Positions 43,481-64,000 of a DNA stretch of 64,000 bases are shown piece by piece. Where the stretch lies: positions 91,566-155,565 of the IMG/VR virus record IMGVR_UViG_3300020463_000007, one strand, 5' to 3'. The notes below the pieces were generated by a model. The model was not told the DNA's origin, ran no database searches, and saw only the letters and a program-made list of their open reading frames with translations. The DNA comes from a virus. The translations under genes were made by a program, and so were the position numbers. The first letter of the stretch is position 1. Every line of letters begins with the position of its first letter.

Positions 43481-45662
43481 TTATCTTTTGTTATATACCG
43501 CTGGTGTAGGCGGAGAAATAATTACGTATGCATTAAGTCAGTGTGTGCGAGAATTAAATTCTATTCCCACAATAAATGTAGGTAAAAATAGATGGTTTAC
43601 AATATGTAAAAAAGTCTATTGCAGAGACTCAAATCCCCATACACATATATACTCTGGTGAGGATGATCCAAACAAAAGCGATTTGTACAAAGATCACTTT
43701 GATCCTCTAGTATTATCTTATTGGGATAAAGACATGACTGTGTTGTGTTTTAATCTCACAAAAAACTTTGAATACTGGACAAAATTAGCTTGGCATAAAC
43801 TAAAAGATATAGAACCTATAAAAGACGACTTTATTGATACACATGTTGATCAACACAAAAAGGATTTAACAATATTAAATCAATATGTAAATCATTTTAA
43901 AAAAACACATCTAATAAATTTAGATGACTTAGATAAAAATTGTGAAAGCCTTATAGTTCAATTACAGAGAATATTTCCTAGTTTAAAGACAGTAAAATTT
44001 AGGAAAATTATTACAAAATGGATAAAGAAAAATAATAAAATTTTACAAAAAAAATATACAAAACCAATGTCTTTTGATTTGAATATTTTTCGTACAATGC
44101 AACAACGTATTGAAATGATACAGCATCCAGATTGTCCTATTGACGTAATGGTAATAGTTGCAGAGTTTGACAAAGATCAACAAGTACTTGAAGCGTTATG
44201 GAACAACCCAAATTTACCTAATATGGACTCTCCACAAGGGCGTAAAATAAGGACACTACTAAAATTAAGATTAGAAATAGATACAGATAAATTAGATAAA
44301 ACACAAGAAAATATTTTAATCAACAAAGATAGATGGAAAGCATTTTGTCCTATTGCGTGGAACCATTTAGCAACAAATGCAGATGGAAGTATACGCATGT
44401 GTTGTCAAATGATTTATAATCCATATGGAACTGTGTATAAAGAAGATGGTACAGTTCTTACCGGAAAAGATAATATTACAGAACATAGAAATGCTCCAGT
44501 CTGGAAAAAATTAAGACAAGATATGATGAACGGTATAGATCCAGAATTGTGTAGATTATGCACAGCAGAAGAACAAAATGGAATCGGTAGTAAACGACAG
44601 TGGACAAGAAAGTTGTATGAGGATACATATCATAAAGCAGTAAGTCTTACAAAAGCAGACGGTTCTATAGATGACAAAGATTTTCCTATTACATATATGG
44701 ATTTAAGATTTGGTAACAAGTGTAATTTAAAATGCAGAAGTTGTGGACCTACAGATAGTAATTTATGGTATGATGATTGGGTAAAATTACATCCTGGTAA
44801 ACCGTTTAATTATAGAGAACATAATAAAGTATCTATAGAAACTTTACCTGATGGTACAAATACTGTGCCTAATTTATTCGAACCAGATGAAACATATAGT
44901 AAGCTGTGGATTCATATAATGAATAATTTAGACACTATTAAACGATATTATTTTACAGGTGGCGAGCCAACTATTAATTTAAAGCATAGAGAATTATTGG
45001 ATTATTACATAAAAAGAGGAACTGCAAATCAAGTTATTTTAGATTATAATACTAATATGGCTGGAGTGCCCAGTAAGGTGTTTGAACAATGGAAATATTT
45101 TAAGCAGATAAACTTAGGAATGAGTATAGATGGAATAAACAATCATTTTGAATTTATAAGACATCCAGGAAAGTTTTCTACTGTTCTAAAAAATATGCGT
45201 AGAGTTGATAGAGAAAAAGGTTTTGAAAAATTAATTGCAAGTATCACTTTAACACTGAGTGTACAAAATGTTTTACACTTTCCTGAAATGCAGTGGTGGA
45301 TGAAAGAACAGAATTGGAATCGTATAGAGGAAGTTATTATTGTACATAATCTATATGGACCAGACATGTTAAATATTCAAAATTTACCTATAAAATATAA
45401 AAAATATATTGATTCAAGATATAAAAAATTTATTAAAGATATTAACAATAGATGGAATAACAGCATAGATGAAAAATCATTTTGTCGTAAAGTCGAACAA
45501 AGATGTAATAGTATTCTACAGCATTTATGGGATAAAGAACCAAACACAGATGCATATGAAAGATTATGGCCCTGGATGGAACAATTAGATTCTATTAGGA
45601 ATGAATCTTGGAAAAAATCATTGCCTGATATACAAAGAATGATTGAGGAATGTAGTGAGTAA
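43449..45662 (+). CDS. Multidomain radical SAM protein (N-terminal extra domains, twitch domain, rSAM core)
   Basis: FCPIAW...DGSIRMCC...CRLC, then DLRFGNKCNLKCRSC, YFTGGEP, YNTN, SIDG. Confidence 0.88.
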   Translation: MKLDFSNNKDNYLLLYTAGVGGEIITYALSQCVRELNSIPTINVGKNRWFTICKKVYCRDSNPHTHIYSGEDDPNKSDLYKDHFDPLVLSYWDKDMTVLCFNLTKNFEYWTKLAWHKLKDIEPIKDDFIDTHVDQHKKDLTILNQYVNHFKKTHLINLDDLDKNCESLIVQLQRIFPSLKTVKFRKIITKWIKKNNKILQKKYTKPMSFDLNIFRTMQQRIEMIQHPDCPIDVMVIVAEFDKDQQVLEALWNNPNLPNMDSPQGRKIRTLLKLRLEIDTDKLDKTQENILINKDRWKAFCPIAWNHLATNADGSIRMCCQMIYNPYGTVYKEDGTVLTGKDNITEHRNAPVWKKLRQDMMNGIDPELCRLCTAEEQNGIGSKRQWTRKLYEDTYHKAVSLTKADGSIDDKDFPITYMDLRFGNKCNLKCRSCGPTDSNLWYDDWVKLHPGKPFNYREHNKVSIETLPDGTNTVPNLFEPDETYSKLWIHIMNNLDTIKRYYFTGGEPTINLKHRELLDYYIKRGTANQVILDYNTNMAGVPSKVFEQWKYFKQINLGMSIDGINNHFEFIRHPGKFSTVLKNMRRVDREKGFEKLIASITLTLSVQNVLHFPEMQWWMKEQNWNRIEEVIIVHNLYGPDMLNIQNLPIKYKKYIDSRYKKFIKDINNRWNNSIDEKSFCRKVEQRCNSILQHLWDKEPNTDAYERLWPWMEQLDSIRNESWKKSLPDIQRMIEECSE

Positions 45663-46938
45663 GAAATATAATTTAGATATAGAATCACAAATAAAAAATA
45701 ATCCTGCATTCTGCACAATGCCGTTTACTCATCAGTATATTGCAACAGATGGTTTTGTAAATCTTTGTTGTCTTGCTGATTATAATAAACCAATTGTAAA
45801 AAATGTGCAAGGACATGATTTGCAAAAAGTATGGACTAGCAACATAATGCAAGAAATACGCAAAAAAATGCTAAAAGGGGAATTCGAACCAAGATGCAAA
45901 ACTTGCTGGAAGCAGGACAAAGAAGGAGGCGGGTCTGATCGTGAAAGTTTGAATACAGTATATCTTAAACACAAATTAAAACAACATCCTATCACTTTAG
46001 ATATCGAAAAAGGAAATAGCACAGGTGGCCCTACATGGGCAGATTTGCGTCCAGGAAGACTGTGTAATTTTGGCTGTAGAATGTGTTTTGGATCAATAAG
46101 CAGTACAATAGCTCAGGAACAGTTAGAACATCCTGAAACTCAGGATATTATGTTCGAAGAATGGAAAGATGTAAAAGACTGGATAGACGATCCAGTATGT
46201 TTCGAAAGTATTAAAAAACAAATTCCAAAAATGAATCTAATTAAACTAGCTGGCGGCGAACCTTTGTTTATGCCAGGTGTATTTAAGCTACTAAAATGGT
46301 GTATTGATAGCGGTAATACACACTTAATGTTGGATGTGACTACAAATGGTAGTAGGATAAAAGGAAAAACAACTAGTTTATTACCTAAATTTGCAAAAGT
46401 AGATTTACAATTTAGTATGTGTGGAGTTGGAGTTGCAAATGATTATATCAGGTATGGAGCAAACTGGGCTCAATTAGACGAAGCGTATAAACATTATTTA
46501 AAGCTCTCTGGACTAAGGGTGCAATTACTTGCAACTGCTCAAATTTACAACGCCTGGGACTTAGCAAATCTTATTGACTACTGGTATGAGACAGGTTCAT
46601 CTCCAAATATTGTTTTCAATCCAGTCAACGGACCTATAGATTTAACGATAGATTTACTACCATATGCTTATAGGGTTGAAATTGCTGAAGATTTAAAGAA
46701 AAGATTGTGCCTTCTTACACAAGAGCAACAGCGAATAAGTAGAATTCATCATATTATTACAAGACTTACAAAGCCAGAGCCTACAGATTTAGAAACTATA
46801 GACAAATATAAAAATTGGCGCACACATTTTGTGAAAAGAACCTTACTGTATGACAGAATTAGAAAGCAAGATGTTACAAAAATACATCCTAAATTAACAG
46901 AAGTATGGAATACATGGTTGAAAGAATATGCCGATTAA
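45655..46938 (+). CDS. Twitch-domain radical SAM protein
   Basis: FCTMPF...DGFVNLCC...CKTC, CNFGCRMC, LAGGEP, TTNG. Probable GTG start at 45655 after GAGGA (ORF open from 45643). Confidence 0.88.
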   Translation: MSKKYNLDIESQIKNNPAFCTMPFTHQYIATDGFVNLCCLADYNKPIVKNVQGHDLQKVWTSNIMQEIRKKMLKGEFEPRCKTCWKQDKEGGGSDRESLNTVYLKHKLKQHPITLDIEKGNSTGGPTWADLRPGRLCNFGCRMCFGSISSTIAQEQLEHPETQDIMFEEWKDVKDWIDDPVCFESIKKQIPKMNLIKLAGGEPLFMPGVFKLLKWCIDSGNTHLMLDVTTNGSRIKGKTTSLLPKFAKVDLQFSMCGVGVANDYIRYGANWAQLDEAYKHYLKLSGLRVQLLATAQIYNAWDLANLIDYWYETGSSPNIVFNPVNGPIDLTIDLLPYAYRVEIAEDLKKRLCLLTQEQQRISRIHHIITRLTKPEPTDLETIDKYKNWRTHFVKRTLLYDRIRKQDVTKIHPKLTEVWNTWLKEYAD

Positions 46939-50548: not shown

Positions 50549-51133
50549 TTAGTGTTCTTTACAATTAGGTAGCATTTTTGCTATTTGTTTAATATTATTT
50601 TCGTTAATGTATAAACTCATTAAAATGTGGTATATATCGTCTGCCATTGCGAAACTGCCGTGTGTTTTCCTTGTGTTTAGTATGTATGGAACACCTTCTT
50701 TGAATCTTTGTATGTTTCCGTCATATATAAACATCCATTCGTCATCTGTAGTCTTGTTTAAAGGAATAAAAATACGGAATTGGTCATTCAGTCTAAATGC
50801 ATCTCTGTGCAATCTAAAAAAACTACCTTTGTCCATAGTTGCTACTCTACATCTTGCAAGTTCTGTCCATTTATCAAAAAACTTTATAATACTAGGACAT
50901 TTTAGTAAGTTTTCATTATATGGTTGATTCCTTTGATGCTTAATTTCCGCCGGAGTGTCTAAACCTAAATCTTCAATAGGACCAGTAAGATTAATTGCAG
51001 TTTTTCCATTAGGCCCTGGCAACCAATCCTTTATTTGTTTTAGTTCTGTGATGGTTTTTTCAGAAAATTTATAATCTAATTCTACTACGTCTCCGTATGA
51101 ACAAAGTATACTATGTAAACTCATTACATCCAT
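50549..51133 (-). CDS. Fe(II)/2OG-dependent oxygenase (Asp/Asn beta-hydroxylase-like cupin)
   Basis: RCRVA...LHRD...RIFIPL...LNTRKTHGS: HxD...H facial triad. Confidence 0.75.
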   Translation of the reverse strand: MDVMSLHSILCSYGDVVELDYKFSEKTITELKQIKDWLPGPNGKTAINLTGPIEDLGLDTPAEIKHQRNQPYNENLLKCPSIIKFFDKWTELARCRVATMDKGSFFRLHRDAFRLNDQFRIFIPLNKTTDDEWMFIYDGNIQRFKEGVPYILNTRKTHGSFAMADDIYHILMSLYINENNIKQIAKMLPNCKEH

Positions 51134-51378
51134 TATAAGTCACCCTTGTCTTTCATTTCCCGTTCTAATTTTGCTACATGATGAATACGTTTTATTTGAT
51201 GATACATTTTAAAAATAGTTATTGGACCGTCAGCTTTATACCAACATGGGAAAATTCCATGTATATAAGATTTAATTGCACAGGCTATTAGCTTGTTACT
51301 TTGGTGAACACTATGCGTTAAGTGTTTCCAGTATCCCCATTCTGTTTCTTCTAAATGTTCTTTAATTTTTTTATACAT
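51133..51378 (-). CDS. Small DUF6356-like protein
   Basis: ATG at 51378 after GGAGGA; HL...YWKHL...IHGIFP pattern. Confidence 0.6.
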   Translation of the reverse strand: MYKKIKEHLEETEWGYWKHLTHSVHQSNKLIACAIKSYIHGIFPCWYKADGPITIFKMYHQIKRIHHVAKLEREMKDKGDL

Positions 51379-51994
51379 ATTTCCTCCAACACCATATATG
51401 ACCATCAAAAGTTTTTTTCCAATCTTGACCGTTGTGTTTAAATGTTCTTTTTGTTGAATGTTCAACAATCCATTCTAAATCAACATTCAAATTATTAGTA
51501 AATTCATGAATTCTACTACGTGGCCAAGATCCTATTCCAATCCAAAATCCGTGTTGTTTTCTTCTTTCTTCTAAATTATCTTCTGTTTCTTTTTTATGTC
51601 TCATTATAAGTAAACCGCCTGGCCGTAACCAAGATAACATTTTTTCTATGTTAGGTTTGTGATATTCATCAGGACACTCATGTAAAACTCCTAAACACAA
51701 GACACCGTCTTGACTTTCTAGTTCTATTGGAGCATCTAAAATTTTGCATACATAATCTTGATTACCATAATCAACAAAATCAAATCCTATCAAATTAGGA
51801 AAATACTTTTTATAAGGATTTACTCCACAACCAGCATCAACTATATTTGCATTACATGAAAATATTTCACGTATATCATGTTTTTTAGAGATTTTTGCAT
51901 TGTTTCTTTTTGCACTAAACCTAGATAAATTTTCAGGCAATTTAAAAAATTTTAATCTACTTTGATCAAATTCCTTAAAATCTTGTATATCCAT
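51371..51994 (-). CDS. Class I SAM-dependent methyltransferase
   Basis: IVDAGCG, GFD, DGVLCLGVLHE, LRPGG. Probable start at 51994 (ORF open from 52012). Confidence 0.85.
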   Translation of the reverse strand: MDIQDFKEFDQSRLKFFKLPENLSRFSAKRNNAKISKKHDIREIFSCNANIVDAGCGVNPYKKYFPNLIGFDFVDYGNQDYVCKILDAPIELESQDGVLCLGVLHECPDEYHKPNIEKMLSWLRPGGLLIMRHKKETEDNLEERRKQHGFWIGIGSWPRSRIHEFTNNLNVDLEWIVEHSTKRTFKHNGQDWKKTFDGHIWCWRKYV

Positions 51995-52023
51995 AAAACT
52001 AGTTCCTTGCATGTATTTAACCT

Positions 52024-52377
52024 CTAAAACACTCCCTCAAAAATAAAGTAGTCAACGACAAATGTAAGCTCTGCACCTATAAACACTGATAGGTAGTAAT
52101 TATCTAGCCTATCCCATAGTATCTTTATAATCCACCACGCTATACCAACTCTTAGTGTATATAATACGTTAGCTTGTATAAAATCAGCTAATTCTGGTAA
52201 TGCTTGTGCTTGAAATAGATAAGCAAAAACCCCGCCGTCATATAAAAAACTTAACTGTGCTGATACTAAAACAGCAAATCCGTAAGGTATATACTTGTAT
52301 AAAAACTTAACTATATGAGCAGTTACTAATAATCTATATAATACATAGACTATGTTAGCTACTAATAATTCTAGCAT
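52024..52377 (-). CDS. Small membrane protein with an internal two-fold repeat
   Basis: Highly hydrophobic 117-aa ORF whose two halves are alignable. Confidence 0.7.
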   Translation of the reverse strand: MLELLVANIVYVLYRLLVTAHIVKFLYKYIPYGFAVLVSAQLSFLYDGGVFAYLFQAQALPELADFIQANVLYTLRVGIAWWIIKILWDRLDNYYLSVFIGAELTFVVDYFIFEGVF

Positions 52378-52381
52378 TCAT

Positions 52382-53098
52382 TTATTCCACAGAATAATAG
52401 TGATCTCGTTCATTTAATATTTTATCAGTATCTTCTGTTCTAGTACCTGTTAACTGTAAACTTACTCTTGGACCGTAGCTTGTGTTAGCCGTTGAATGAG
52501 GAGTATTCGGCCAATCAAAAATATGTATTTCTCCAGCTTTCCATCTTTCATACATTCGATTACCATACATATAAAATTGTCCTGGTTCCCAGTCATTTAG
52601 CATGATTGTTATTCTTACTACTTTAGATGGATCCTCAGGATTAAATTGATAAAGTTTGTCTATGTGTAGATTCCAAAGCTGACCTGTGGTTTGTACATGG
52701 ATTCTTTTTTGAAAATTTTCAAGATGGAAATATTCTGCCATCTCATTTATTTTTGTATATTTCTCACAGTTTCTATTAAAGTTAGATACTTCTAAGTCAG
52801 CACTAGCTCCCGCAGATGTAAGATCATATTCTTCTTGTTCTATAAACTTGTCTTTACGTTCGCCTTTTTTACCTCTTGTAGCCCAAGTAACTGGTTTGCT
52901 ATCTTTTATAACTTGTTTTAATTCTTCTTTCCAATCACCATGGAATGTTCCGCATACACGAAACGTTTCACCTTCACCGTCAACTGTGTTCTTATCAAAG
53001 TGGTAATTACTATTACTTTTTGTCCATTCCCAATTACTTTTATAGTCATCAGGATTAGTCAAATATTTCATCTTATCTTTATCAAATTTAAATGCCAT
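52382..53098 (-). CDS. Fe(II)/2OG oxygenase-like cupin (paralogue 1)
   Basis: LHIDK...DWEPGQF...WKAGEIHIFDWPNTPHSTAN...R-x-S: HxD...H triad. Confidence 0.7.
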   Translation of the reverse strand: MAFKFDKDKMKYLTNPDDYKSNWEWTKSNSNYHFDKNTVDGEGETFRVCGTFHGDWKEELKQVIKDSKPVTWATRGKKGERKDKFIEQEEYDLTSAGASADLEVSNFNRNCEKYTKINEMAEYFHLENFQKRIHVQTTGQLWNLHIDKLYQFNPEDPSKVVRITIMLNDWEPGQFYMYGNRMYERWKAGEIHIFDWPNTPHSTANTSYGPRVSLQLTGTRTEDTDKILNERDHYYSVE

Positions 53099-53119: not shown

Positions 53120-53530
53120 TTAAGTCTGCAGCTTACCTTCTTTACGCATCTTGGCACGTAATTCTGTAGCACTTATACTATGTATCTCCTTTCCTAAGTC
53201 ATGCTCTGTAAAGGTATATCCTACCCCACGACCATAACTAATATCTACAATATTAGGGACAATCATAATATTGTATTCCCTATAATATTCAAAACCCTCT
53301 TTAGCAAGTTCCTTTTTTATATTATCTTCTACATCAGCCACGATAAATGGATTGTCATCCTGCGTCATTGTACGTCCGCCTGATGCATCTGTGTCTTGCG
53401 GCACAGTTCTAATCATAATACATACTTGTCCTGTTTCAGCTAAAGCACGTTTGAATAATTCAGTATGTCCTTTATGCCAAGGTTGCCAACGTCCTAACAT
53501 TTGTGTTGTAGGCTTAAAAACATTAAACAC
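53120..53530 (-). CDS. HxGH-superfamily nucleotidyltransferase (cytidylyltransferase-like; candidate minimal ATP sulfurylase)
   Basis: GRWQPWHKGH and SISATELR motifs; coupled to the APS kinase gene. Confidence 0.75.
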   Translation of the reverse strand: MFNVFKPTTQMLGRWQPWHKGHTELFKRALAETGQVCIMIRTVPQDTDASGGRTMTQDDNPFIVADVEDNIKKELAKEGFEYYREYNIMIVPNIVDISYGRGVGYTFTEHDLGKEIHSISATELRAKMRKEGKLQT

Positions 53531-53948
53531 TATTTTTCTCCATGTAATTTTTCACTACTTCCATTAATTGTGCATGTGTATCCTCAAACCATTTTGAAAC
53601 ATGATAGTTAACAGTAGTAGGTTTTTCAAACATTTTATTTGTGTCTTCGTATCTACCTTCTTTAATAGTATCCATCCAAACTAGATAATCTGCATCAAAT
53701 TCTTGTCTTGCTCTTTCTGTAGGACAAATAAAATCAGCAACTGCAACTTTTCCTGCACTAACAACACCATCAGCTAGATAACGCATTCTTTGTGCTTGTC
53801 TAACTCTACCTTCTAAACTAAAATCCCAGTCTTTATATTTGTCTCTTACAGCATCTGCATTTATATGAATTGCACCAATTAATTCTGCAAAAGGTTTTGC
53901 CAGCGTGGTTTTACCACTACCAGGCAAGCCAAATATTAATATTTTCAT
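53523..53948 (-). CDS. cysC: Adenylyl-sulfate (APS) kinase-like protein
   Basis: GLPGSGKTTLA P-loop; NADAVR...DFSLEGR...ADFICP...R matches the CysC DGDxxR/LGFS/ISP core. Shorter than cellular CysC. Confidence 0.75.
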   Translation of the reverse strand: MKILIFGLPGSGKTTLAKPFAELIGAIHINADAVRDKYKDWDFSLEGRVRQAQRMRYLADGVVSAGKVAVADFICPTERARQEFDADYLVWMDTIKEGRYEDTNKMFEKPTTVNYHVSKWFEDTHAQLMEVVKNYMEKNSV

Positions 53949-54586
53949 ACTGCGCCTTTCTTGCTACTTGCTAATTGAATTGTTTTATCTAATACCGATT
54001 CTGCTTGTGATATGTATTTCTTATTCGCATCTTTAGATAATATTTCTAATAGTTTAGTATCATCTATGGTTACTTCATTTGGTAACAATCCTAGTTGTTT
54101 TTCTAAAGATTGTAAATATCTTATCTCATACAAGTATAATAACTCTTGACTAGCAAATATTGTTTTATGGCCAAGTATTAGACTATCTAACTGTTTTATA
54201 AAAAACGGTGTTGTATATTTTCCTCTTACACGTTCTTGCTGTAATTTTACAATATTACTATCTCTTCCTATTATAAGTAATTGTATTTTGCAAAACTTTC
54301 TTGCTACTTCTATAAAATTATTATATTCTGGAATAGTTTCTATACCATCATCAAAATAAGGACAGCTAATACTTGTAATAAAATATTTACTTTGTTTCCA
54401 ATCAAATTCATTTAGCTTTGACGGGTCTTTCCAACACTCTGCGAACGGTTCTAAATCATGACCTTCCCAATATTTTTCTTGTAATTTTGGCCATACAAAT
54501 ATATTTTTGTTTTGTCCTAACGCTTTGCTGAATAAATGGTTACCGCTTCCTTGCGGACCAGTCATTATAGTAAGTAAAGGTTTCAA
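53945..54586 (-). CDS. Sulfotransferase-fold P-loop protein
   Basis: IMTGPQGSGNHLFSKAL 5'-PSB-like loop; IIGRD 3'-PB-like motif; adjacent to cysC. Confidence 0.55.
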   Translation of the reverse strand: MKPLLTIMTGPQGSGNHLFSKALGQNKNIFVWPKLQEKYWEGHDLEPFAECWKDPSKLNEFDWKQSKYFITSISCPYFDDGIETIPEYNNFIEVARKFCKIQLLIIGRDSNIVKLQQERVRGKYTTPFFIKQLDSLILGHKTIFASQELLYLYEIRYLQSLEKQLGLLPNEVTIDDTKLLEILSKDANKKYISQAESVLDKTIQLASSKKGAV

Positions 54587-54783
54587 AGTTTACCCCATTT
54601 TATTATATTCCATATACGTTCGTGTACATAAAATACAAACGTGTTAGCAGTAAGTTGTATAATTGCAATAGAACCGCTTATACTAATGTCACGCAATATT
54701 GCGTAACTAATTAAAAATGTGCAAAGTGTACCAGTTAATCTCCATGATACTGTCTTTACGAGACTTCTTACTTTAGTGTCCAT
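54583..54783 (-). CDS. DUF2061-like small membrane protein
   Basis: RSLVKTVSWR...FYVHERIWNIIKWG signature. Confidence 0.8.
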   Translation of the reverse strand: MDTKVRSLVKTVSWRLTGTLCTFLISYAILRDISISGSIAIIQLTANTFVFYVHERIWNIIKWGKL

Positions 54784-55514
54784 ACTGTATCACGCGATCC
54801 ATTAGCAATAATTTCCCTAGTTTTATCTGATTTTAACCCTGTAATCTGTATGCAGGGTCTTGCAAAATTACTTGTGTTAGCGGTTGCGTGTGGCACATTA
54901 GGCCAATCAAATATATGAGCTTCTCCGGCTTTCCATCTTTCATAGATAAAATTACCATACATATAGAACTGTCCTGGTTGCCAATCATCTAAGAAAAATG
55001 TAATACGACATACTTGTTCAGGATCTTCTATGCATCTATCCCAAAGTTTGTCAATGTGTAAGTTAAACATTTGACCTGTAAGTTGAACATGGGCACGATA
55101 TTTTAATTCGTCCTTACCACCCACTACGCCAAAGTGTTCTTTCATTTTAACAAGCATAGGATAATCCTCTAACTCATCTTTCATATTTGTAAGCATAAGT
55201 TTTTTAGGATCACCTCCTCCTTGTATAATATCATATTCTTCTTGTTTCAACATTGGAGATGCATCTTCTTTATGTCCGAAGAATTTTCTTGTTTCCCAAT
55301 TGATAGCTTTAGTTGCATTTTCAACTAATCTATCTCTATCTATTTTCCATAACTCAGGATTATCAAATCGGCCTAAAACTTTAACCCATTCGCCTTCCTT
55401 GTCTTGAATATTATTATCAAAATGATATTCACTGTGTGCTACAGTCCAATCCCAATTACTTTTGTAATTGTCTGCAGGTTCTAAAGTTTTAGTCCAATTT
55501 GTTTTGTGCATCAT
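54768..55514 (-). CDS. Fe(II)/2OG oxygenase-like cupin (paralogue 2)
   Basis: LHIDK...DWQPGQFYMYGN...WKAGEAHIFDWPNVPHATAN; closely similar to 52382-53098. Confidence 0.7.
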   Translation of the reverse strand: MMHKTNWTKTLEPADNYKSNWDWTVAHSEYHFDNNIQDKEGEWVKVLGRFDNPELWKIDRDRLVENATKAINWETRKFFGHKEDASPMLKQEEYDIIQGGGDPKKLMLTNMKDELEDYPMLVKMKEHFGVVGGKDELKYRAHVQLTGQMFNLHIDKLWDRCIEDPEQVCRITFFLDDWQPGQFYMYGNFIYERWKAGEAHIFDWPNVPHATANTSNFARPCIQITGLKSDKTREIIANGSRDTVWTLK

Positions 55515-57019
55515 ACGTAATCAAGTCCTTTATCTTTTCTAACTAAACTGTTTATAAATATTCCTAATGCAACAACGATACATATAAGGAATATAGGATG
55601 GTTATATATGTTAAATAATTCAAACCACCTAAAGTCGGACATTGAACTTAATCCTGGTTTCCATTGTTTATAACCATAAATCTGCAATGTACCCCAAAAG
55701 TATTCATCTATCTTAAAAGCTACAACGTATGCAACTAGAATTGCTGGTCTACTAATGTTCCACATTTTACATAAGACTCCTATAGCACTTAAGATAGCAA
55801 GTAAAGCTAAATCTTCCCAACCACCTGTGTATTGCATATTAGCATAAATGATTACTGCTAAAATAAAAGTAGCGTAAATCCAAAAAGGCACTTCTAATAT
55901 TTTAAGTATATACTTGTATAAAAATATACTTAATAATGCAACACCAATAGTCCCAAAAATATAACCAAATGCTAAACTATTTGTAAATTGTATATCATCT
56001 AATAGACTTGGTGTACCAATCTCCATACCGAAATACATACATATTGCCATTACCATTGCGGCAAAAGGTGCAGCTGGTATTCCAAACAAACATGCAGGAA
56101 TCATACTAGATACCTTTTGTGCATTGTTTGCTCCTTCACACCCTAATAATCCTACAGGGTTACCTTCACCAAAAGGAACTTCTTGATCTTTTTCTTTATG
56201 TGCGGCCTTTGTGGCACCGTATGCTAAGAAGTCACCTACTGCGCCTCCTACACCTGGTAATAAACCAGTAACGAAGCCAATCAACCCACCACGTATCATA
56301 TCACGCCAGTGTGTTTTTACATCACGGAAGCCTTGGAAAAGACCTGTCCAATAACTTCCATTTATTGGTGGTGCTGCGGATTTTAATTTTCTTCTAAATC
56401 CATCTAATAATTCTGGTACTCCAAACAGGCCTGATAGTAAAACTACCATTCCTATTCCATTTTGCAAATATTCCCAACCAAATGTTAGTCTAGGATTACT
56501 TACAACATCTTCACCAACCATACCTACTGCTAGTCCGAATATGATTGCACATATACTTAAAAATACATTTTTACTTGCCACAAAGCCTACACAGGCTAGT
56601 GCCATTGTCATGAAGCCCAGAAACTCTGGACGTCCGAATAATACTATAATCTTCCCATAATAAGGAAGTAAAAAGAATGTTAGTGCCGCAAATACAACTC
56701 CGTTAAAAGTAGAGTCAGCAATAGCAATACCCATTGCTCTTGAGGCTTGGCCTTTTTTCGCCATAGGATAACCATCTATAACACAGGCCGCGGTTGTACT
56801 TGCTCCTGGTATGCCTGTAAGAATACTTGTATAACTATCTGCACTTGCACAACTTGCTACTATTGCAGTAAGAAAGACTAACCCCAAATAGGGGTCAGCC
56901 ATAAAGTATGCTCCCATGCTAAAGACAGTTATCAGGGCAGTAGTTACACCTGCAATAGGTATAATACCAACTAGCATTCCATACATGGTGCCAATTAATG
57001 CCCAGATAACATAGTCCAT
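55511..57019 (-). CDS. tctA: Tripartite tricarboxylate transporter large membrane subunit
   Basis: About 500-aa polytopic protein with GIIP...GIPG...DGYPMAKKG, GLLPGVGG, EGANNA and FGIPA TctA signatures. Confidence 0.9.
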   Translation of the reverse strand: MDYVIWALIGTMYGMLVGIIPIAGVTTALITVFSMGAYFMADPYLGLVFLTAIVASCASADSYTSILTGIPGASTTAACVIDGYPMAKKGQASRAMGIAIADSTFNGVVFAALTFFLLPYYGKIIVLFGRPEFLGFMTMALACVGFVASKNVFLSICAIIFGLAVGMVGEDVVSNPRLTFGWEYLQNGIGMVVLLSGLFGVPELLDGFRRKLKSAAPPINGSYWTGLFQGFRDVKTHWRDMIRGGLIGFVTGLLPGVGGAVGDFLAYGATKAAHKEKDQEVPFGEGNPVGLLGCEGANNAQKVSSMIPACLFGIPAAPFAAMVMAICMYFGMEIGTPSLLDDIQFTNSLAFGYIFGTIGVALLSIFLYKYILKILEVPFWIYATFILAVIIYANMQYTGGWEDLALLAILSAIGVLCKMWNISRPAILVAYVVAFKIDEYFWGTLQIYGYKQWKPGLSSMSDFRWFELFNIYNHPIFLICIVVALGIFINSLVRKDKGLDYV

Positions 57020-57030
57020 AGGTTAATCCT

Positions 57031-58086
57031 TTACTTTAAAAGCTCTGGCTTATAAATTGATGGAAAGCCATATGCTTCCTGATTCCATTTAACCGCATCT
57101 TTAAGAGCTTTCTCTGTAATTAGGGATTTTAGAGTAGCTAATAATTCTGGGCCATCTTGGATCCAAGGATAAGTTCCTGTTTTAGCATAAATTTCAGCAC
57201 TTGCAACTGGATCATTAATCATTTCAGTTACAGCCGCTTTAATCTTTTCTGCATTAGGATTGCCTTTGTTTACCCAAAGAGACTTTTGGATAGCATCACG
57301 CCAGTTACGTGTTAAGCGATATGCTTCATACAAATCACCTTTTGGTGCTTCGCCCCATAACTTTTCGTACAAGTCCTCGAACTGTGTACCTGGAAAGTTT
57401 GGGTCTGCCATTTGTACTTTATTTTCTAAGTCTAGGATACCGTGTGTGAACCAAAGTTCATTACCTTCGATACCTTCGTAGAAACGTTTCCAAGCCGCAG
57501 GCGATTCACGTGCTACATCAAATTCACCGTTTTTAAAACCAAGACGCTTTTCGCCTCCTGATACACCGTTAACCCAAGTTACACGTTCTCTCCAACATTT
57601 TAGATAGTCGTCTACTGTGTTGCCACCCTGTGGACCACAAAGTAACATTGCAACTGCCGCTGCATCTGGTTCAAAACCTGATCCACCTGCAATAGTCCAG
57701 TTTCCTGATTTTTCATCAGCACCAGCATGTTTACCAAGAACAATATCATTGTTCATAGAACCCATTAGTTCATAGTCGAAGTAGTTGTAGTCAATCTTAT
57801 CTAGCAAGAATGATACACCGTTACCACCGTGTGCAACCATAATTGTTTTGTCATCAAAACGTAGACTGTTGTGGAACTTGTTAAACCCAGGAATATCTCT
57901 TGCTCCTGGAATATGACGTACTACTACTGATTCGCCAATAAACTTTTCTAAGTTCTTAGCGATAATTTCGCTCCATACAGAAGTACCTTTACCGGGTGCC
58001 TGAGGAACAATCAGCGTATAATCAGCAAAAGCTGTTGTAGCTGACATCGTTAAAGCCATAAAGACTCCAATGATTAGTTTCTTCAT
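57031..58086 (-). CDS. tctC: Tripartite tricarboxylate transporter periplasmic binding protein (TctC/Bug-like, divergent)
   Basis: Signal peptide ending AFA; LIVPQAPGKGTS and VVVRHIPGA Bug-type N-terminal motifs; directly upstream of tctA with a strong AAGGAG RBS. Confidence 0.75.
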   Translation of the reverse strand: MKKLIIGVFMALTMSATTAFADYTLIVPQAPGKGTSVWSEIIAKNLEKFIGESVVVRHIPGARDIPGFNKFHNSLRFDDKTIMVAHGGNGVSFLLDKIDYNYFDYELMGSMNNDIVLGKHAGADEKSGNWTIAGGSGFEPDAAAVAMLLCGPQGGNTVDDYLKCWRERVTWVNGVSGGEKRLGFKNGEFDVARESPAAWKRFYEGIEGNELWFTHGILDLENKVQMADPNFPGTQFEDLYEKLWGEAPKGDLYEAYRLTRNWRDAIQKSLWVNKGNPNAEKIKAAVTEMINDPVASAEIYAKTGTYPWIQDGPELLATLKSLITEKALKDAVKWNQEAYGFPSIYKPELLK

Positions 58087-58262: not shown

Positions 58263-59000
58263 ATGAACACTCGAATTTTTAGTTTAATAGACGAAAATTT
58301 AAAGAACTCCTTCAATTTACCTAAATATGACAATATTAATGAACAGATTACAGAAAATACACATATAGGTTCGTTACCTTGGTCACCAGCTAGACTACGC
58401 AAGTTTAAAGACAGTATTACATCTAAGTTACAGCTTGACGTAGAAAGCGTTGATGTGACAGTTAAAGAACTTGTAGCTGATCTTGACAAAAAATATATGC
58501 ATAGGTTCTTTGGGGAGATATGGCAACCTAAGACTGAAATATATCAATACAGTGGTTGGGCTTTAGTTGATGCAATAAACAATGCAAATCCAAAAGCAGT
58601 ACTAGACTTTGGCTGTGGATATCATCCATTTAAAAATAGAATAAAAAATCTAATTGGTATTGACCCTTTTAATAATAGTGCAGACTATATGGTTGACATA
58701 TTAGAATTTGCTGTAGAACCTGAAAGTTATGACCATATTATTGTATTTGGTAGCCTTAACTTCGGCGATAGAAATGACATTGATAAAAGGTTTGAAAAAC
58801 TAGTTGAAATACTAATGCCAGGAGGCAGAATGTATTTTAGAGCCAATCCAGGTCACTTGTGGCCTAAAGGTCCTTATGTTGATATTTTTCCTTGGTCATT
58901 CGAAGTAGCGTATGAACAAGCAAAAGTACACAATCTTGAATTAGAAAAGTTTAAAAAAGACAACGGCGACAGACTATACTTTGAATTTTACAAGCCATAG
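58263..59000 (+). CDS. Class I methyltransferase with an N-terminal ACP-like helical domain
   Basis: VLDFGCG, GIDP, YDHIIVFGSLNFG, LMPGG; about 80 N-terminal residues resemble an acyl-carrier fold. Confidence 0.75.
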   Translation: MNTRIFSLIDENLKNSFNLPKYDNINEQITENTHIGSLPWSPARLRKFKDSITSKLQLDVESVDVTVKELVADLDKKYMHRFFGEIWQPKTEIYQYSGWALVDAINNANPKAVLDFGCGYHPFKNRIKNLIGIDPFNNSADYMVDILEFAVEPESYDHIIVFGSLNFGDRNDIDKRFEKLVEILMPGGRMYFRANPGHLWPKGPYVDIFPWSFEVAYEQAKVHNLELEKFKKDNGDRLYFEFYKP

Positions 59001-59011
59001 GAAACAAAAAT

Positions 59012-59719
59012 ATGTATGATGAAAGTAAACTTATATTCTTTACCGGTGCTCCGGGAAGCAAATGGAGTGCAGTATCGAATGTAATATCAAAAAATACAAT
59101 TATGCCTATAAACATATCTGATCATAGAGATGACAGAGTGTATACGCATACAAGATCTCCAGTTCAACATTTAGGTGCATATTGGGGTCCTGGCCAAGAA
59201 CACGGACAAAAATTTGATCAACTCGAAACATTAACAAAAGAACAAATAATTCAAGAGATAGATGGGCCGTATGCCGATAAAACTTGGGATACTCATAGAA
59301 TTATCAAATGCCATCATTTTTCTTTGCAATTAGATTACATAAGAAAAACTTTTCCATTAGCAAAAATAATAATTGTGCTTCGAACTGAAATAAAAAATTT
59401 CAGAGGCTGGAAAGGTGCCGGCGGCTTTGAGTCTATTGATTATCCAGATTATCATACATATTATAAAAATTATGATCTACTCAAAGAAAAAATATTTGAA
59501 GAAGTAGCCGCGGCAAATAATTGGGTAGGCGAAAATAAGTTAAGAGTTAATGTTTGTGATAGACACTATTTTAAAGAACGTTGGGGTTTAGAATCTAAAG
59601 AAGATTATGATTGGTTGGATTTTTATATTTCTTCTATAGAGAAAAGCCAACCAAAAGAAGTCAACAACTTTAATGGCAGATATGTTCTTGATGTAAATAT
59701 TTGTGAATACAATTTTTAG
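59012..59719 (+). CDS. Sulfotransferase-fold protein (paralogue 1)
   Basis: FFTGAPGSKWS loop, IIKCHHF catalytic-His motif, FPLAKIIIVLR 3'-PB-like motif. Confidence 0.6.
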   Translation: MYDESKLIFFTGAPGSKWSAVSNVISKNTIMPINISDHRDDRVYTHTRSPVQHLGAYWGPGQEHGQKFDQLETLTKEQIIQEIDGPYADKTWDTHRIIKCHHFSLQLDYIRKTFPLAKIIIVLRTEIKNFRGWKGAGGFESIDYPDYHTYYKNYDLLKEKIFEEVAAANNWVGENKLRVNVCDRHYFKERWGLESKEDYDWLDFYISSIEKSQPKEVNNFNGRYVLDVNICEYNF

Positions 59720-59727
59720 GAGAACAA

Positions 59728-60699
59728 ATGGAAAAAAATTATGCTGATGATGCAAATAAAATTTTAAAAAAATCTATCGAAGGTGATAAAGATAATGTGA
59801 ATTACTATTCCGGTGATCGTGTGCAAGATCTTGTGCCAGATAAAGTACCACAAGTTGAAGAAGGTGTGAATATTAATGATAGTAATTACCAAGATGATAT
59901 GTATTCAGAGGAACAACTAGAACGTCATAAAAAATCTAACATGAATGTGTACACCGTAGACGGAATTCCTAGTAGATGGTACCATAATAAACTAAGATCA
60001 ACTTGGCATTTTGATCCAAAAGCAGATCCACAAGAAAAAACATTTACAGTGATGTGTAAATTTAAAGGAGATTGGGAAGCTGGAGTACAAAGAGCTTTAA
60101 GAAAATGTAAAGAACATACTATTGGAAACTATAGGCCAAGAAATTCTAGCCAGCAAGATAAAGATTTACATGAAGGCGAAATGATGGATATAAAACGTGC
60201 ATCAGGTAAGGATGATGTGTCTTGTATGTACCATCACCAAATAGCACATAATGAAAAAAGAGATACACATCCTGATTCTGCTGTTTTTTTTAGAATGCTA
60301 GAAGCAGTCGGCATGTATGACGTACATCAATCACGAATACACATACAACGTCTAGGAGAAGTAACTCCTTTTCATATTGATCAACAGATGAGATACGCAA
60401 GGCCAGAATGGAGAGAAAAATGGATTGCGGCAGGTGCTGACAAAAATCCACTTATGTTACGTAGGATACTAATAGCTTTAACACCCTGGGATTATGGACA
60501 TGTATGGCAGTTTGGTAACACATATTATCAAGGTTATGACGCAGGTGAATGTGTTGTTTATGACTGGTGTAATATGCCGCATGCGGCTTCTAACATGGGC
60601 TACACACCAAGAATAACTTTACAAGCTACTGGATTTATAAATGAAAAGTTTACTAATTTAATGAACAACGGATCGAAAGAGCACATTATAAATGTCTGA
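59728..60699 (+). CDS. Fe(II)/2OG oxygenase-like cupin (paralogue 3)
   Basis: WHFD, RIHIQ, FHID, WDYGHVWQFGN, GECVVYDWCNMPHAASN...RITLQATG. Confidence 0.7.
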   Translation: MEKNYADDANKILKKSIEGDKDNVNYYSGDRVQDLVPDKVPQVEEGVNINDSNYQDDMYSEEQLERHKKSNMNVYTVDGIPSRWYHNKLRSTWHFDPKADPQEKTFTVMCKFKGDWEAGVQRALRKCKEHTIGNYRPRNSSQQDKDLHEGEMMDIKRASGKDDVSCMYHHQIAHNEKRDTHPDSAVFFRMLEAVGMYDVHQSRIHIQRLGEVTPFHIDQQMRYARPEWREKWIAAGADKNPLMLRRILIALTPWDYGHVWQFGNTYYQGYDAGECVVYDWCNMPHAASNMGYTPRITLQATGFINEKFTNLMNNGSKEHIINV

Positions 60700-61489
60700 T
60701 GAACCTATAAGGCCTAGAAAAACAAAAGGACAACAACCTAAAATTCGTAAACAGATTTTTAACGAACCTCACACTATAGATCTATGGAATGGTAAGGATA
60801 CTGAAGAAAATAGTAAACCTTGGGTAGGCGGAAGAGGTCGTGATTTATTTACTGCACACGTTGCTCAAAAAGAAGCCGTTAAAAAACATATAGAATATAG
60901 ATGGAATAGTTTAGGACTCAGGGGACCTGAACCAAATTACAAAGCAAATAAAAAAATTATATTTGGTGGCGGAAGTTTATGTTTAGGAAATGGTGTAAAT
61001 GTAGAAGAAAGTTTTCCCCACATTGTTGCAACAAGTTTAAATGCATCTTATATGAATTTAAGTCCAGCTGATACTCTAACTGATCTTATAGACCCATTAA
61101 TAGAATTTAAAAACTTTGAACCCGATTATATTATTTTAAATGACACAAGATTCTTTCAAAATTATGGTTGGGCATTACGTCAAATATATAAAATGAAAAA
61201 ATTAGAACAAGATGAAGGTTATAAAAAACATTTTACTAATTCTGATATAGATTGTTTAAAATTATTTGACTACTTTTTAAAAGGTTTGTTTCCGAATGCA
61301 AAATTTATTCTTGCATATTGTGAAAGGAGAGCATGGAAATCTATAATTCCAAACTTGAATAATATATATAAAGTACCGTTTGAAGCAAAAGAAACTGTAG
61401 TTGATTTAGCAAGAGATGGATTTCATCCAGGAGTTGAATCACACAAAATTATGGCAGAAATGATTCTAAAAGGAATAAACAATGTATGA
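60692..61489 (+). CDS. SGNH/GDSL hydrolase-like protein
   Basis: NSLGLRG, GGSLCLG (block I Ser), RDGFHPG (DxxH). Confidence 0.65.
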   Translation: MSDEPIRPRKTKGQQPKIRKQIFNEPHTIDLWNGKDTEENSKPWVGGRGRDLFTAHVAQKEAVKKHIEYRWNSLGLRGPEPNYKANKKIIFGGGSLCLGNGVNVEESFPHIVATSLNASYMNLSPADTLTDLIDPLIEFKNFEPDYIILNDTRFFQNYGWALRQIYKMKKLEQDEGYKKHFTNSDIDCLKLFDYFLKGLFPNAKFILAYCERRAWKSIIPNLNNIYKVPFEAKETVVDLARDGFHPGVESHKIMAEMILKGINNV

Positions 61490-62216
61490 AGATTACACAG
61501 GTAAAGATTTAATAATAGCAACAGGTGCTCCAGGAAGCAGATGGAGTGGAACATTGCGTATGATAACATGTAATACAGATATTAATATATCTGACGAAAC
61601 ACCTGATAGGATATATGATCATATAGCAGTCAATCCTAAAACAGGAGCAGAACAAGCTAGAGGATGGCATAGAGGAGCATATTGGGGACCTGATCATGAA
61701 TTTGGAAGCAAGTTTGATGTTATTAACACACTAACTAAAGAAGAAATTGTAGAAGAATTTAAAAAACCATTTGGAAATTGGGAACCTGGCAAAAAAATAA
61801 TTAAAAGCCATTGGTTTGCTTATCATCTGCCATTTCTAAAAGAAATGTTTCCAGATGCTAAGTTTATAGGTGTACAGCGTAGTAACACTGGCTGTTTTGA
61901 ATGGTGGCATGTGTGCGGCGGTTGGGACATTTCATATCCGCATTACTTTTGGTATAAGGACGATGATCGTATGCGTGAACAAATAGCTAAAGAAAATGCT
62001 TGCATTACACAGTTTTTCCCAGACAGGAAAAATCATACCATTGAAGAAATATTTTTAGCATTAGGTCTTCCTAATAAAATAGTTAAGTATAAAGAGTTTC
62101 TTGAAAGAGATGACAAACTTGCAGAAGTATTAGATGATAAAAATAGTGCAAAAAGTGATGACTATCGTCCAGCTTTAGACTTTGTTGTAGGCAAAGTTTT
62201 AACAGGTATTCTGTAA
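61482..62216 (+). CDS. Sulfotransferase-fold protein (paralogue 2)
   Basis: ATGAPGSRWS, HRGAYWGP, IIKSHWF, FPDAKFIGVQR; paralogous to 59012-59719. Confidence 0.6.
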   Translation: MYEDYTGKDLIIATGAPGSRWSGTLRMITCNTDINISDETPDRIYDHIAVNPKTGAEQARGWHRGAYWGPDHEFGSKFDVINTLTKEEIVEEFKKPFGNWEPGKKIIKSHWFAYHLPFLKEMFPDAKFIGVQRSNTGCFEWWHVCGGWDISYPHYFWYKDDDRMREQIAKENACITQFFPDRKNHTIEEIFLALGLPNKIVKYKEFLERDDKLAEVLDDKNSAKSDDYRPALDFVVGKVLTGIL

Positions 62217-62936
62217 TCGTTCTTTATAATATAAGATAGGAAAATAACCTAGTTGCGGCATCTTATAATGTAAGTGTACCTTATCTCCTGTAGAAAACCA
62301 ATCATCGTGTATACAAATATCACCTTTAACAAGTAATTCGTCTGTCTTGTAATCAATTTGATAACAACAATTTAAATTTTCACCCATTATAGGTAAACCA
62401 CCAGGCGCCCATTCTGCATGTCTATCAACATACTTTAATGTTTCAAAAGTTGTGTTTATTGCACATGGACCTATTTCGCTCATACCCCAATTAGCTATTA
62501 CTGTTGCACCTTTGCTAACAAATTTACGAATGTGATCCCATGGAATAATATCACTGCCCATTGCAATAACTTTACCGTTAAAATTAGCATCTTTAAAACC
62601 TTTTGTTTTTATTAATGCTTCACACATTGCTGGGGGCAAAAAAGTATGTGTATATTTTTCAAAGTCTTTAATAAAACTAAAAGGATTAAATTTTGTTATA
62701 AAAATATCACAACCTAATGTATATGCAGGTAAACTCTGTAAAAGTAAACCTCCTGCATGAGTCATTCTTGTACATGTAAATATTTTGCTTTGTGATGTAA
62801 TATATTGATCTTTTATAGCGACAGAATTACATGCTTCTAAATTTTTTGGACTACGAAATATCTGTTTAGGTGTGCCTGTGGTCCCACTACTTGATATAGT
62901 GCAACCTTCTTTTAATATTTTTTTGAAGTCTGTCAT
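62199..62936 (-). CDS. Truncated adenylate-forming (ANL/AMP-binding) enzyme
   Basis: SSGTTGTPK P-loop, THAGG, WGMSE, ELLVKG, WFSTGD; only 245 aa. Confidence 0.8.
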   Translation of the reverse strand: MTDFKKILKEGCTISSSGTTGTPKQIFRSPKNLEACNSVAIKDQYITSQSKIFTCTRMTHAGGLLLQSLPAYTLGCDIFITKFNPFSFIKDFEKYTHTFLPPAMCEALIKTKGFKDANFNGKVIAMGSDIIPWDHIRKFVSKGATVIANWGMSEIGPCAINTTFETLKYVDRHAEWAPGGLPIMGENLNCCYQIDYKTDELLVKGDICIHDDWFSTGDKVHLHYKMPQLGYFPILYYKERLQNTC

Positions 62937-63769
62937 AATTCAGTAGCATACTCAGTTTTTTTCTTTTCATATTGTGCAATTAAAAATTCTGTGACTACAC
63001 CTGTTTTATCAGTTGCTGTAATACCACCACTTGAACTAGTAATAAAAACTTCATCAGCAGATTCAAAAAAATCTGCACTTATAGGCATGCGTTTGAATGT
63101 AGAACCATTTTCATTTGCAATGTCTTCAACAACACTCATTGTTATACCTTTGAGTACATTTTTATCAGATGTCATTATAATTTTATCTTTAACAATACCA
63201 ACATTAAATCCAGGACCTTCAGTTATAAATCCGTTAGTGTCAACTAAAACAGTTGTGTCATAATTACTTGGCTTGTTACGCTGACTCATTGTAAGTTCAA
63301 TCCAAGCCATATTTTTATATGTCTGCCCATAATAATCATCATTTACACGTTTTGTATCTCTATCTAAAAATAGTTTTACTTGTGGTGTACTTGCTATAGG
63401 GTAACTTGGTTTTATGTACATTGCAAAATTTACAGGGCAATTTTCTAAGTCTCTTGGATTTCCACTAGGTGGATAACCACGCCATATTAAAAACCATACA
63501 AATGCATTTTCAATAGGATTGCGTTTAGCTAATTCTTTAATAATCTTTAGAGGATCTACGTCTGGAATTGCAAGGCCGTATCTTTCTGCACTATTCTTAA
63601 ATCTTTGTAAATGTCTTTCATAACAAAATGCTTTGCCGTTATATACTGGCATTACATCATATGTTGCATCGCAATGAATAAATCCAAAATCTAAAATTGT
63701 TGGACCTATTTGTCCTAACGGCTTATATTCTCCATTTTTATATGCTATTAAATCTAATACATTAGTCAT
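62933..63769 (-). CDS. PLP-dependent class IV aminotransferase (BCAT/DAAT/ADC-lyase fold)
   Basis: DFGFIHCDATYD, HLQRF..SA, catalytic Lys in TYKNM, ITEGPGFN, LKGIT, ADEVFITSS. Confidence 0.9.
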   Translation of the reverse strand: MTNVLDLIAYKNGEYKPLGQIGPTILDFGFIHCDATYDVMPVYNGKAFCYERHLQRFKNSAERYGLAIPDVDPLKIIKELAKRNPIENAFVWFLIWRGYPPSGNPRDLENCPVNFAMYIKPSYPIASTPQVKLFLDRDTKRVNDDYYGQTYKNMAWIELTMSQRNKPSNYDTTVLVDTNGFITEGPGFNVGIVKDKIIMTSDKNVLKGITMSVVEDIANENGSTFKRMPISADFFESADEVFITSSSGGITATDKTGVVTEFLIAQYEKKKTEYATEL

Positions 63770-64000
63770 CAAACTTTACCTTTTTAAGTTGTGGATCATC
63801 TGGTAATTTTTTCTTTAATTCTTTTAATCTGTTTATACGCCATTCTAATAATTTAAAATCAAGTATCCAAGGAAAAAAAGCATGTATCAAACTGCCTAAG
63901 CATACAAAAAGCAAGAAAAAGAATTCGTTTATTGCGAGCCTGAAGTGCCAAAAATAACCAGCATCGGGTCTACCTGCTTTTGTTTTTGCTTCATTTAAAT
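63762..64000 (-). CDS. DUF6356-like small protein, start outside the window
   Basis: Not in the ORF track. Manual translation: LNEAKTKAGRPDAGYFWHFRLAINEFFFLLFVCLGSLIHAFFPWILD...KVKFDD*; Y-x-x-H...IHAFFP as in 51133-51378. Confidence 0.6.
   Translation of the reverse strand, partial: LNEAKTKAGRPDAGYFWHFRLAINEFFFLLFVCLGSLIHAFFPWILDFKLLEWRINRLKELKKKLPDDPQLKKVKFDD

Follow-up and report, generated by a model that had tools for sequence, protein, structure and literature searches.

A putative two-gene tripartite tricarboxylate-type transporter without a recognisable TctB in aquatic jumbo phages

The 64,000-nucleotide stretch of DNA analysed here, called the window, is the final 64 kb (positions 91,566 to 155,565) of the 155,565-bp linear IMG/VR virus record IMGVR_UViG_3300020463_000007, the completeness of which is estimated by CheckV at 44%. 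Near its end lie two adjacent genes of the tripartite tricarboxylate transporter (TTT) type, encoding a periplasmic solute-binding protein (SBP) of the Bug/TctC family and a TctA permease. Both open reading frames (ORFs) are intact and, as a preliminary description of this DNA had it, they head a co-directional run extending from 58086 to 51371, the genes of which overlap by 4-16 nt or are separated by no more than 21 nt (Table 1). The pair is probably a virus-specific two-component TTT that works without the third component, TctB, and imports one anionic small molecule for the tailoring enzymes encoded next to it.

The permease is matched by the Pfam family PF01970 over profile positions 2-422 of 423, with an E-value of 1.1e-85 (288 bits; cut-off 28.9). 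It has about 12 hydrophobic segments, a single one of which lies past residue 420. The glycine-rich motif that defines TctA, G-x3-G-x3-G-x2-P-G-x-G in transmembrane helices 1 and 7 (Winnen 2003, as quoted in PMC5812351), reads G-FVT-G-LL-P-G-V-G in helix 7 and G-TMY-G-MLV-G-II-P-IA-G, one residue off the consensus, in helix 1. The glycines and prolines of both motifs are invariant across 22 TctA homologs. All 83 phage TctA ORFs examined are 474-506 residues long and have no C-terminal extension.

The SBP gene lies 11 nt upstream of tctA and a Shine-Dalgarno sequence is present. The N-terminus of its product reads as a typical Sec signal peptide ending in AFA before DY. Pfam, NCBIfam and PHROGs gave no match to the SBP, even at an E-value of 10. 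An exhaustive search returned 300 cluster representatives at E <=0.001, and the Bug/TctC family PF03401 was matched by 16 of the 60 full-length relatives scanned. A profile of these 60, distant relatives included, found eleven Bug/TctC sequences of the PDB at E-values of 2e-22 to 1e-13, and a profile of the phage-clade SBPs alone ranked BugD first (E 0.0016). The AlphaFold model has a predicted local distance difference test (pLDDT) score of 95, and the 11 PDB entries that match it best are without exception Bug/TctC proteins. With no Pfam or NCBIfam model matching, the assignment is made jointly from the two profiles and the model: the SBP belongs to the Bug/TctC family, and the two-lobed type II Bug fold is present in its predicted structure. 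The initial naming of this gene as TctC was therefore right.

Residues that are invariant in the phage clade of SBPs, and specific to it, are W38, H86-G-G-N-G, R193, R263-D264 and Q267-K268. Bug proteins grip the carboxylate of their ligand through waters with two backbone 'pincer' loops. The first of these can be aligned (P-Q-A-P-G-K-G-T-S in the phage protein, P-F-A-P-G-G-S-T-D in BugE); A-G-G-S-G is a candidate for the second, its placement in the alignment being unreliable. Distant relatives of the SBP are found on contigs of just 1.5-3 kb, one of which carries an SBP gene followed by a permease of more than 558 residues.

The SBP gene has the highest GC content, the highest GC at third codon positions (GC3) and the largest share of C-ending two-fold codons (0.42) of all 42 genes of the window. 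Its GC content is 40%, against about 32% in its surroundings; the window has a GC content of about 0.32 overall and of 0.41 at 56-58 kb. Recent transfer as the cause was rejected, since this is an old family in phages and it is C-ending codons that are favoured. Taken together, the bias and the age of the family in phages are read as selection for high expression, which would be expected for a binding protein. Scans for promoters and terminators gave counts at chance level (72 vs 68 and 6 vs 6.2, respectively), and the TTAAAA-18-TATAAT sequence found upstream of the SBP gene (58205-58176) is a candidate promoter only.

T4-like virion genes, encoding baseplate hub, baseplate wedge and fibre-like proteins, are found at 4-50 kb of the window. 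The wedge protein shares 34-36% identity with its counterparts in jumbo phages such as Salicola SCTP-2, Atu_ph07, PA5oct and the Rak2-like group, and together these features indicate that the contig is part of a jumbo myovirus genome some 350 kb in size. The cassette formed by the transporter and enzyme genes lies within the last 14 kb of the contig and no structural genes follow it, so that a check for chimerism was needed. A back-translated pattern scan found that 264 IMG/VR contigs encode a relative, and the same gene pair occurs in them. The gene is internal in contigs of 342,607, 322,647, 306,714 and 328,292 bp; two of these (328 and 343 kb), in which the whole pair lies internally, have direct terminal repeats (DTR) and a completeness rating of 100%. 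Assemblies made independently (JGI, NCBI and Logan) contain the same SBP/TctA pair amid genes for PhoH, RNA ligase, DnaJ/ClpB and radical-S-adenosylmethionine (SAM) proteins, all of them gene types typical of large phages.

Cellular genomes were scanned with narrow patterns, which report close relatives only. Among 185,579 species genomes (one genome per species) such relatives were confined to six short contigs of metagenome-assembled genomes (MAGs) from six unrelated lineages. These GTDB contigs (L087-L092; 1.9-34 kb), which carry the phage cassette, come from MAGs classified as Chitinophagales, Polynucleobacter, 'Marine bacterium B5-7', Weeksellaceae, Terrimicrobiaceae and Omnitrophota. Their TctA sequences nest among those of viral contigs in the TctA tree, for which the simplest explanation is phage DNA mis-binned into bacterial genomes; the six are probably mis-binned phage contigs.

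In pairwise Nei-Gojobori comparisons with homologs 70-97% identical, the median ratio of nonsynonymous to synonymous divergence (dN/dS) is 0.10 for the SBP (33 pairs) and 0.06 for TctA (31 pairs), with dS of 0.8-1.6. The pair is under strong purifying selection, and synonymous sites have diverged almost to saturation among the viral sequences. Chimerism and host contamination are rejected on the strength of the 264 viral contigs, the internal position in complete genomes and the nesting of the MAG copies; the transporter locus is viral, as had been proposed. The accompanying remark that organic-acid transporters are unusual phage cargo holds for 50,697 GenBank phage records, in which the SBP has no homolog and the few TctA matches (22-30% identity) are to bacterial or unannotated fragments, but not for uncultured aquatic jumbo phages, in which such transporters are common (264 IMG/VR contigs; more than 1,000 protein clusters).

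TctB is a small subunit of 4-5 helices, either separate or fused. A search for it (PF07331) at an E-value of 10 gave no match across the 155-kb contig, in agreement with the preliminary description, and none in five related records, two complete genomes included. The same search gave a signal in 12 of 14 control genomes, above the curated cut-off in 3, and is therefore counted as sensitive. A hidden Markov model (HMM) of the C-terminal domain that is fused to cellular permeases (see below) had no match in 91 phage loci related to the window. The small multi-helix proteins of the cassette are two, a DUF2061 protein and a hydrophobic 117-residue protein, and hhalign finds no relation between them. 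The 117-residue protein consists of two homologous two-helix halves (hhalign 97%, E 1e-10); in locus L002 the halves are two separate ORFs. It is found in 21 of the 91 loci, always within the cassette, directly after tctA in L003-L006 and directly after the SBP gene in L057, L059 and L060. Since neither BLASTP nor hhalign reveals any resemblance between it and Salmonella TctB or the fused cellular domain, and since it is missing from three near-complete relatives, it was rejected as a TctB homolog and remains a candidate accessory protein.

The best named cellular matches of the phage TctA, at 29-35% identity, are encoded by alphaproteobacterial replicons of a plasmid collection, namely those of Sagittula stellata E-37 (WP_005861842/WP_040604922), Gemmobacter fulvus, Thalassospira marina, Rhizobium rosettiformans and Paracoccus liaowanqingii. 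Six annotated cellular regions (Sagittula, Gemmobacter, Thalassospira, Rhizobium rosettiformans, Paracoccus and Pannonibacter) have a permease of 644-666 residues and no separate tctB, and in five of them a TctC of 361-370 residues adjoins the permease. In most of them a two-component system resembling tctDE is present as well, along with nearby genes of carboxylate catabolism (4-oxalomesaconate tautomerase, TcuA, or a member of the isocitrate/isopropylmalate dehydrogenase family). The phage TctA aligns with residues 54-458 of the 659-residue Sagittula permease at 35% identity, and the long cellular permeases have 3-5 more predicted helices past the final canonical helix. In the Sagittula protein the extra helices are matched by almost the entire Pfam TctB profile (positions 2-137 of 137) with an E-value of 2e-6, 0.7 bits short of the curated cut-off. 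TctAB fusion is known 'in some rare cases' (Rosa et al. 2018, PMC5812351). The replicons L099-L103 and L105, with a long permease bearing about four extra C-terminal helices and a TctC of 361-370 residues, look like a distinct bipartite TTT sub-branch, in which one permease alone comes near the Pfam TctB threshold.

The alphaproteobacterial systems, the closest named relatives of both phage proteins, resemble the phage system in having two genes in either order, a long SBP and no separate tctB. They differ in their permeases, 644-666 residues with the extra helices as against 474-506 without, and in their surroundings, which hold a tctDE-type regulator and carboxylate catabolism whereas the phage loci hold oxygenase, methyltransferase-like and sulfotransferase-like genes; their SBPs also pass the Pfam TctC model, which the phage SBP fails. 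The phage SBP is 29% identical to Sagittula TctC (E 1e-19) and shares with this branch a C-terminal helical extension and the loop-1 tryptophan, both of which are absent from Salmonella TctC. A phylogeny of TctA against cellular homologues, proposed earlier as a check, was built by maximum likelihood (LG+C20, 480 columns) from 32 phage representatives and 6 fused and 2 unfused cellular sequences, with Salmonella as the root. The phage proteins form one clade (Shimodaira-Hasegawa-like approximate likelihood ratio test, SH-aLRT, 100) on a long stem inside the fused cellular group. The simplest reading is that phages acquired the system once, long ago, from the fused TctA-B branch and then lost the B-like module, a reading that is provisional because cellular sampling is thin.

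The Salmonella enterica system TctCBA (TTT, TC 2.A.80) has, like that of the phage, a 12-helix TctA (504 vs 502 residues) and a Bug-fold receptor, and its ion-coupled mechanism of uptake is presumed to be common to both (PMC5812351). It differs in having a separate TctB of 143 residues (PF07331, E 6e-22), citrate as cargo and TctDE regulation, and the two TctA proteins are 25% identical. The solved Bug receptors BugD, BugE, Bug27, AdpC, MatC and TphC/TBP are 12-17% identical to the phage SBP, which differs from them by about 50 extra residues, the missing Pfam match and its own invariant residues. Cyanophages encode PstS, a periplasmic phosphate-binding protein thought to raise uptake during infection, and supply this binding protein alone, relying on the ATP-binding cassette (ABC) permease of the host. 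Here the phage adds the permease too, and the transporter is of the secondary type rather than an ABC transporter.

The genes around the pair are listed in Table 1.

Table 1. Transporter, enzyme and small membrane protein genes in the last 14 kb of the window
Feature	Coordinates	Strand	Length and remarks
Divergent Bug/TctC-type periplasmic SBP	57031..58086	-	351 aa; Sec signal peptide; two near-invariant Cys
TctA permease of canonical length, without TctB-like C-terminal domain	55511..57019	-	502 aa; PF01970
2-Oxoglutarate (2OG)/Fe(II) oxygenase-fold protein	54768..55514	-	248 aa; start overlaps tctA stop (ATGA)
DUF2061 small membrane protein	54583..54783	-	66 aa; PF09834 E 2.8e-19; in 18 of 91 loci
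P-loop protein, distantly sulfotransferase-like	53945..54586	-	213 aa; no Pfam match; in 36 loci
P-loop kinase, partial APS-kinase likeness	53523..53948	-	141 aa
Small nucleotidyltransferase-like protein	53120..53530	-	136 aa; weak CTP_transf_like and NMN-adenylyltransferase matches
Second 2OG/Fe oxygenase-like paralog	52382..53098	-	238 aa; 44% identical to 54768-55514 product
Small hydrophobic four-helix protein, internally duplicated, no known family	52024..52377	-	117 aa; from hydrophobicity scan
Class I SAM-methyltransferase-like protein, paralog of 58263-59000	51371..52012	-	213 aa; weak Methyltransf_11/25 matches; family member
SAM-methyltransferase-like protein, divergently transcribed	58263..59000	+	245 aa
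Sulfotransferase-like protein	59012..59719	+	235 aa; conserved TGAPGSxWS motif
Third 2OG/Fe oxygenase-like paralog	59728..60699	+	323 aa; in family alignment; tblastn cross-matches
Second sulfotransferase-like paralog	61482..62216	+	244 aa; 36% identical to 59012-59719 product

The protein encoded directly after tctA has no Pfam match. In an alignment of 32 sequences of its family H153 and D155 are invariant, and H209 and R219 near-invariant. Its model (pLDDT 94) has as top Foldseek matches proline hydroxylases, AspH, AndA, PHD2 and other 2OG oxygenases (E 2.5e-6), its closest kin being hydroxylases of free amino acids and of proteins. The predicted structure has the double-stranded beta-helix fold of 2OG/Fe oxygenases, together with the HxD...H triad and the basic residue. 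The second paralog of the run matches the same genes in related loci.

The P-loop protein of the run was aligned by hhalign with the sulfotransferase-like family in the region of TGPQGSG and TGAPGS (52%, E 1.5e-4). In that family, the Atlas neighbours of the member encoded at 59012-59719 are nearly all viral, and 8 of 34 members match Sulfotransfer_3 (PF13469), the best with an E-value of 2.6e-5; the second paralog matches it at E 0.0013, short of the cut-off. The methyltransferase-like protein at 58263-59000 has a dN/dS of 0.09, its family has an invariant D-x-G-C-G motif, and the family profile matches TehB and phosphoethanolamine N-methyltransferases at E-values of about 1e-3. Family profiles of the oxygenase-like and sulfotransferase-like proteins found nothing significant among PDB sequences; a match to AtsK at E 0.8 was not taken as evidence.

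The kinase scores higher with AAA_33 (34.9 bits) than with the adenosine 5'-phosphosulfate (APS) kinase family PF01583 (33 bits; cut-off 21.1), of which it covers positions 5-91 of 152 only, and it reaches 27.7 bits with the NCBIfam model apsK, the cut-off of which is 138.7. The kinase and the nucleotidyltransferase-like protein, whose genes overlap by 8 nt, match the N-terminal and C-terminal halves, respectively, of phrog_10255 (230 positions), which points to a gene split here or a fused form elsewhere. The preliminary description had continued the operon into an oxygenase, a sulfotransferase-fold gene and cysC. The tight co-directional run and the oxygenase, by fold and motif, were borne out, whereas the support for the sulfotransferase fold is weak and cysC is reduced to a partial APS-kinase match.

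Conservation of the cassette was followed by tblastn of the window genes against the 91 related loci, within the flanks fetched. The SBP and TctA genes are adjacent and on the same strand in 77 loci, with the SBP gene first in 42 and tctA first in 35; they lie a few genes apart in 8 loci, and in the other 6 the SBP gene stands alone at a contig end. A 2OG/Fe oxygenase is found in 64 loci, a methyltransferase-like protein in 75, a sulfotransferase-like protein in 54, and all three in 44. The pair is almost never found outside this enzyme cassette.

Other genes of the window were noted in passing. A DUF6356 protein is encoded at 51133-51468 (minus strand; E 3.5e-11), and contig L002 (359 kb) has the same domain close to its copy of the cassette. 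Just upstream of the cassette, at 41114-46938 (plus strand), four consecutive genes encode radical-SAM proteins of 323, 464, 739 and 431 residues, two of them with SPASM, and relatives of these lie near the cassette in about 20 related loci. In the region 62199-63772 (minus strand) a 245-residue protein matches the C-terminal part only of the AMP-binding (ANL) domain (profile positions 170-377) and adjoins a class IV aminotransferase at the contig end, a pair also present in L007, L070 and L071. A single ORF of 5,186 residues at 13807-29367 (plus strand) directly follows the 1,204-residue baseplate wedge gene; its product is presumably a giant virion or fibre protein.

We infer that the pair is an importer. 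The SBP would be exported to the host periplasm by means of its Sec signal peptide, probably in large amounts, where it would capture one anionic small molecule and pass it to the 12-helix permease. TctA would then move the molecule into the cytoplasm using an ion gradient, without a requirement for TctB. The system would descend from a branch of cellular TTTs whose TctA carries a TctB-like module fused to its C-terminus, the module having been shed in the phages. The imported compound would most likely be a substrate of the neighbouring 2OG/Fe oxygenases and of the methyltransferase-like and sulfotransferase-like paralogs. The cargo suggested in the preliminary description, 2OG, citrate or an organosulfur compound, is conjectural.

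Several points weigh against this scheme. Sequence conservation in TctB is poor (Rosa et al. 2018, PMC5812351), so that its absence from the Pfam and HMM searches leaves room for an unrecognisable small subunit, and the 117-residue protein and the DUF2061 protein lie inside the cassette in 32 of the 91 loci. The naming of the cellular C-terminal domain as TctB-like has behind it the one Sagittula match below the cut-off, together with topology. The tree contains 8 cellular sequences, all from plasmid and phage collections, the stem of the phage clade measures 3.7 substitutions per site, and support is given by SH-aLRT only. The link from cargo to enzymes is drawn by guilt by association, and 47 of the 91 loci have at least one of the three enzyme families missing from the fetched flanks.

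It is unlikely that the transporter is still tripartite, its small partner being a host TctB or an unrecognised phage protein, either the 117-residue protein or the DUF2061 protein. The small subunit is essential in TRAP (tripartite ATP-independent periplasmic) transporters, and TctB is too divergent for reliable detection (PMC5812351). The 117-residue protein is TctB-like in size and helix number, confined to the cassette and in some loci directly after tctA or the SBP gene; however, its presence in just 21 loci, its absence from the two DTR-complete genomes that keep both the SBP and TctA, and its dissimilarity to both forms of TctB-like sequence argue against this role, as does the similarly sparse occurrence of DUF2061. 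As to a host TctB, no named cellular TctA is more than 35% identical to that of the phage, which makes a fit across many host lineages less likely.

Somewhat less likely still is a general metabolic booster that is unrelated to the enzymes and imports citrate, another tricarboxylic acid (TCA) cycle intermediate, or 2OG as the co-substrate of the oxygenases. Tri- and dicarboxylates are the classical cargo of TTT systems, the nearest cellular relatives adjoin the carboxylate-catabolic genes named above, and the 47 loci with an incomplete set of enzymes fit this alternative. The SBP, however, is only 29% identical to its cellular relatives and has clade-specific invariant residues, from which the ligand has probably changed, and the pair keeps to the enzyme cassette almost without exception. 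Moreover, 2OG is an abundant cytoplasmic metabolite.

The Bug family includes orphan receptors, with no permease encoded beside them (PMC5812351), and the secreted SBP might by analogy be a sensor or decoy, or TctA might perturb the membrane; such a non-transport role is very improbable given the tight linkage and co-conservation of the SBP and TctA and the invariance of the transport motifs of TctA. Finally, host DNA joined by misassembly, or a recent passenger without viral function, to which the contig-end position of the cassette and the GC content of the SBP gene could point, is refuted, as far as these data allow, by the complete DTR genomes, the 264 viral contigs, the six nested MAG contigs and the near-saturated synonymous divergence under purifying selection.

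In the literature searched, no description of phage TTT systems was found beyond a tctA domain match on SUP05 viral contigs (PMC4164917). New in this analysis are the kinship with the fused TctA-B systems of cells, the finding that none of the 83 phage permeases has a B module, and the grouping of the phage sequences into one clade. Phages are known for single binding proteins such as PstS; here a complete secondary transporter, a permease with its own receptor, is conserved over hundreds of jumbo-phage genomes.

Since 2003 it has been an open question if a TTT can function only with TctB (PMC5812351). The phage SBP and TctA form a compact natural pair with which this can be tested, and their fused cellular relatives provide a ready comparison. 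We propose tentatively, and with less confidence than the import scheme itself, that a purely viral TTT clade has dispensed with TctB, the SBP and TctA being sufficient, and feeds a virus-encoded tailoring pathway (hydroxylation, methylation, possibly sulfation), the product of which is needed when aquatic bacteria are infected. If true, the clade would be natural evidence that TctA and a binding protein suffice as an SBP-dependent secondary transporter. The tie of the importer to recurrent oxygenase, methyltransferase-like and sulfotransferase-like genes suggests that abundant aquatic phages import and transform a specific dissolved compound and, if that holds, there would be a flux of dissolved organic matter, so far unmeasured by anyone, that is driven by viruses.

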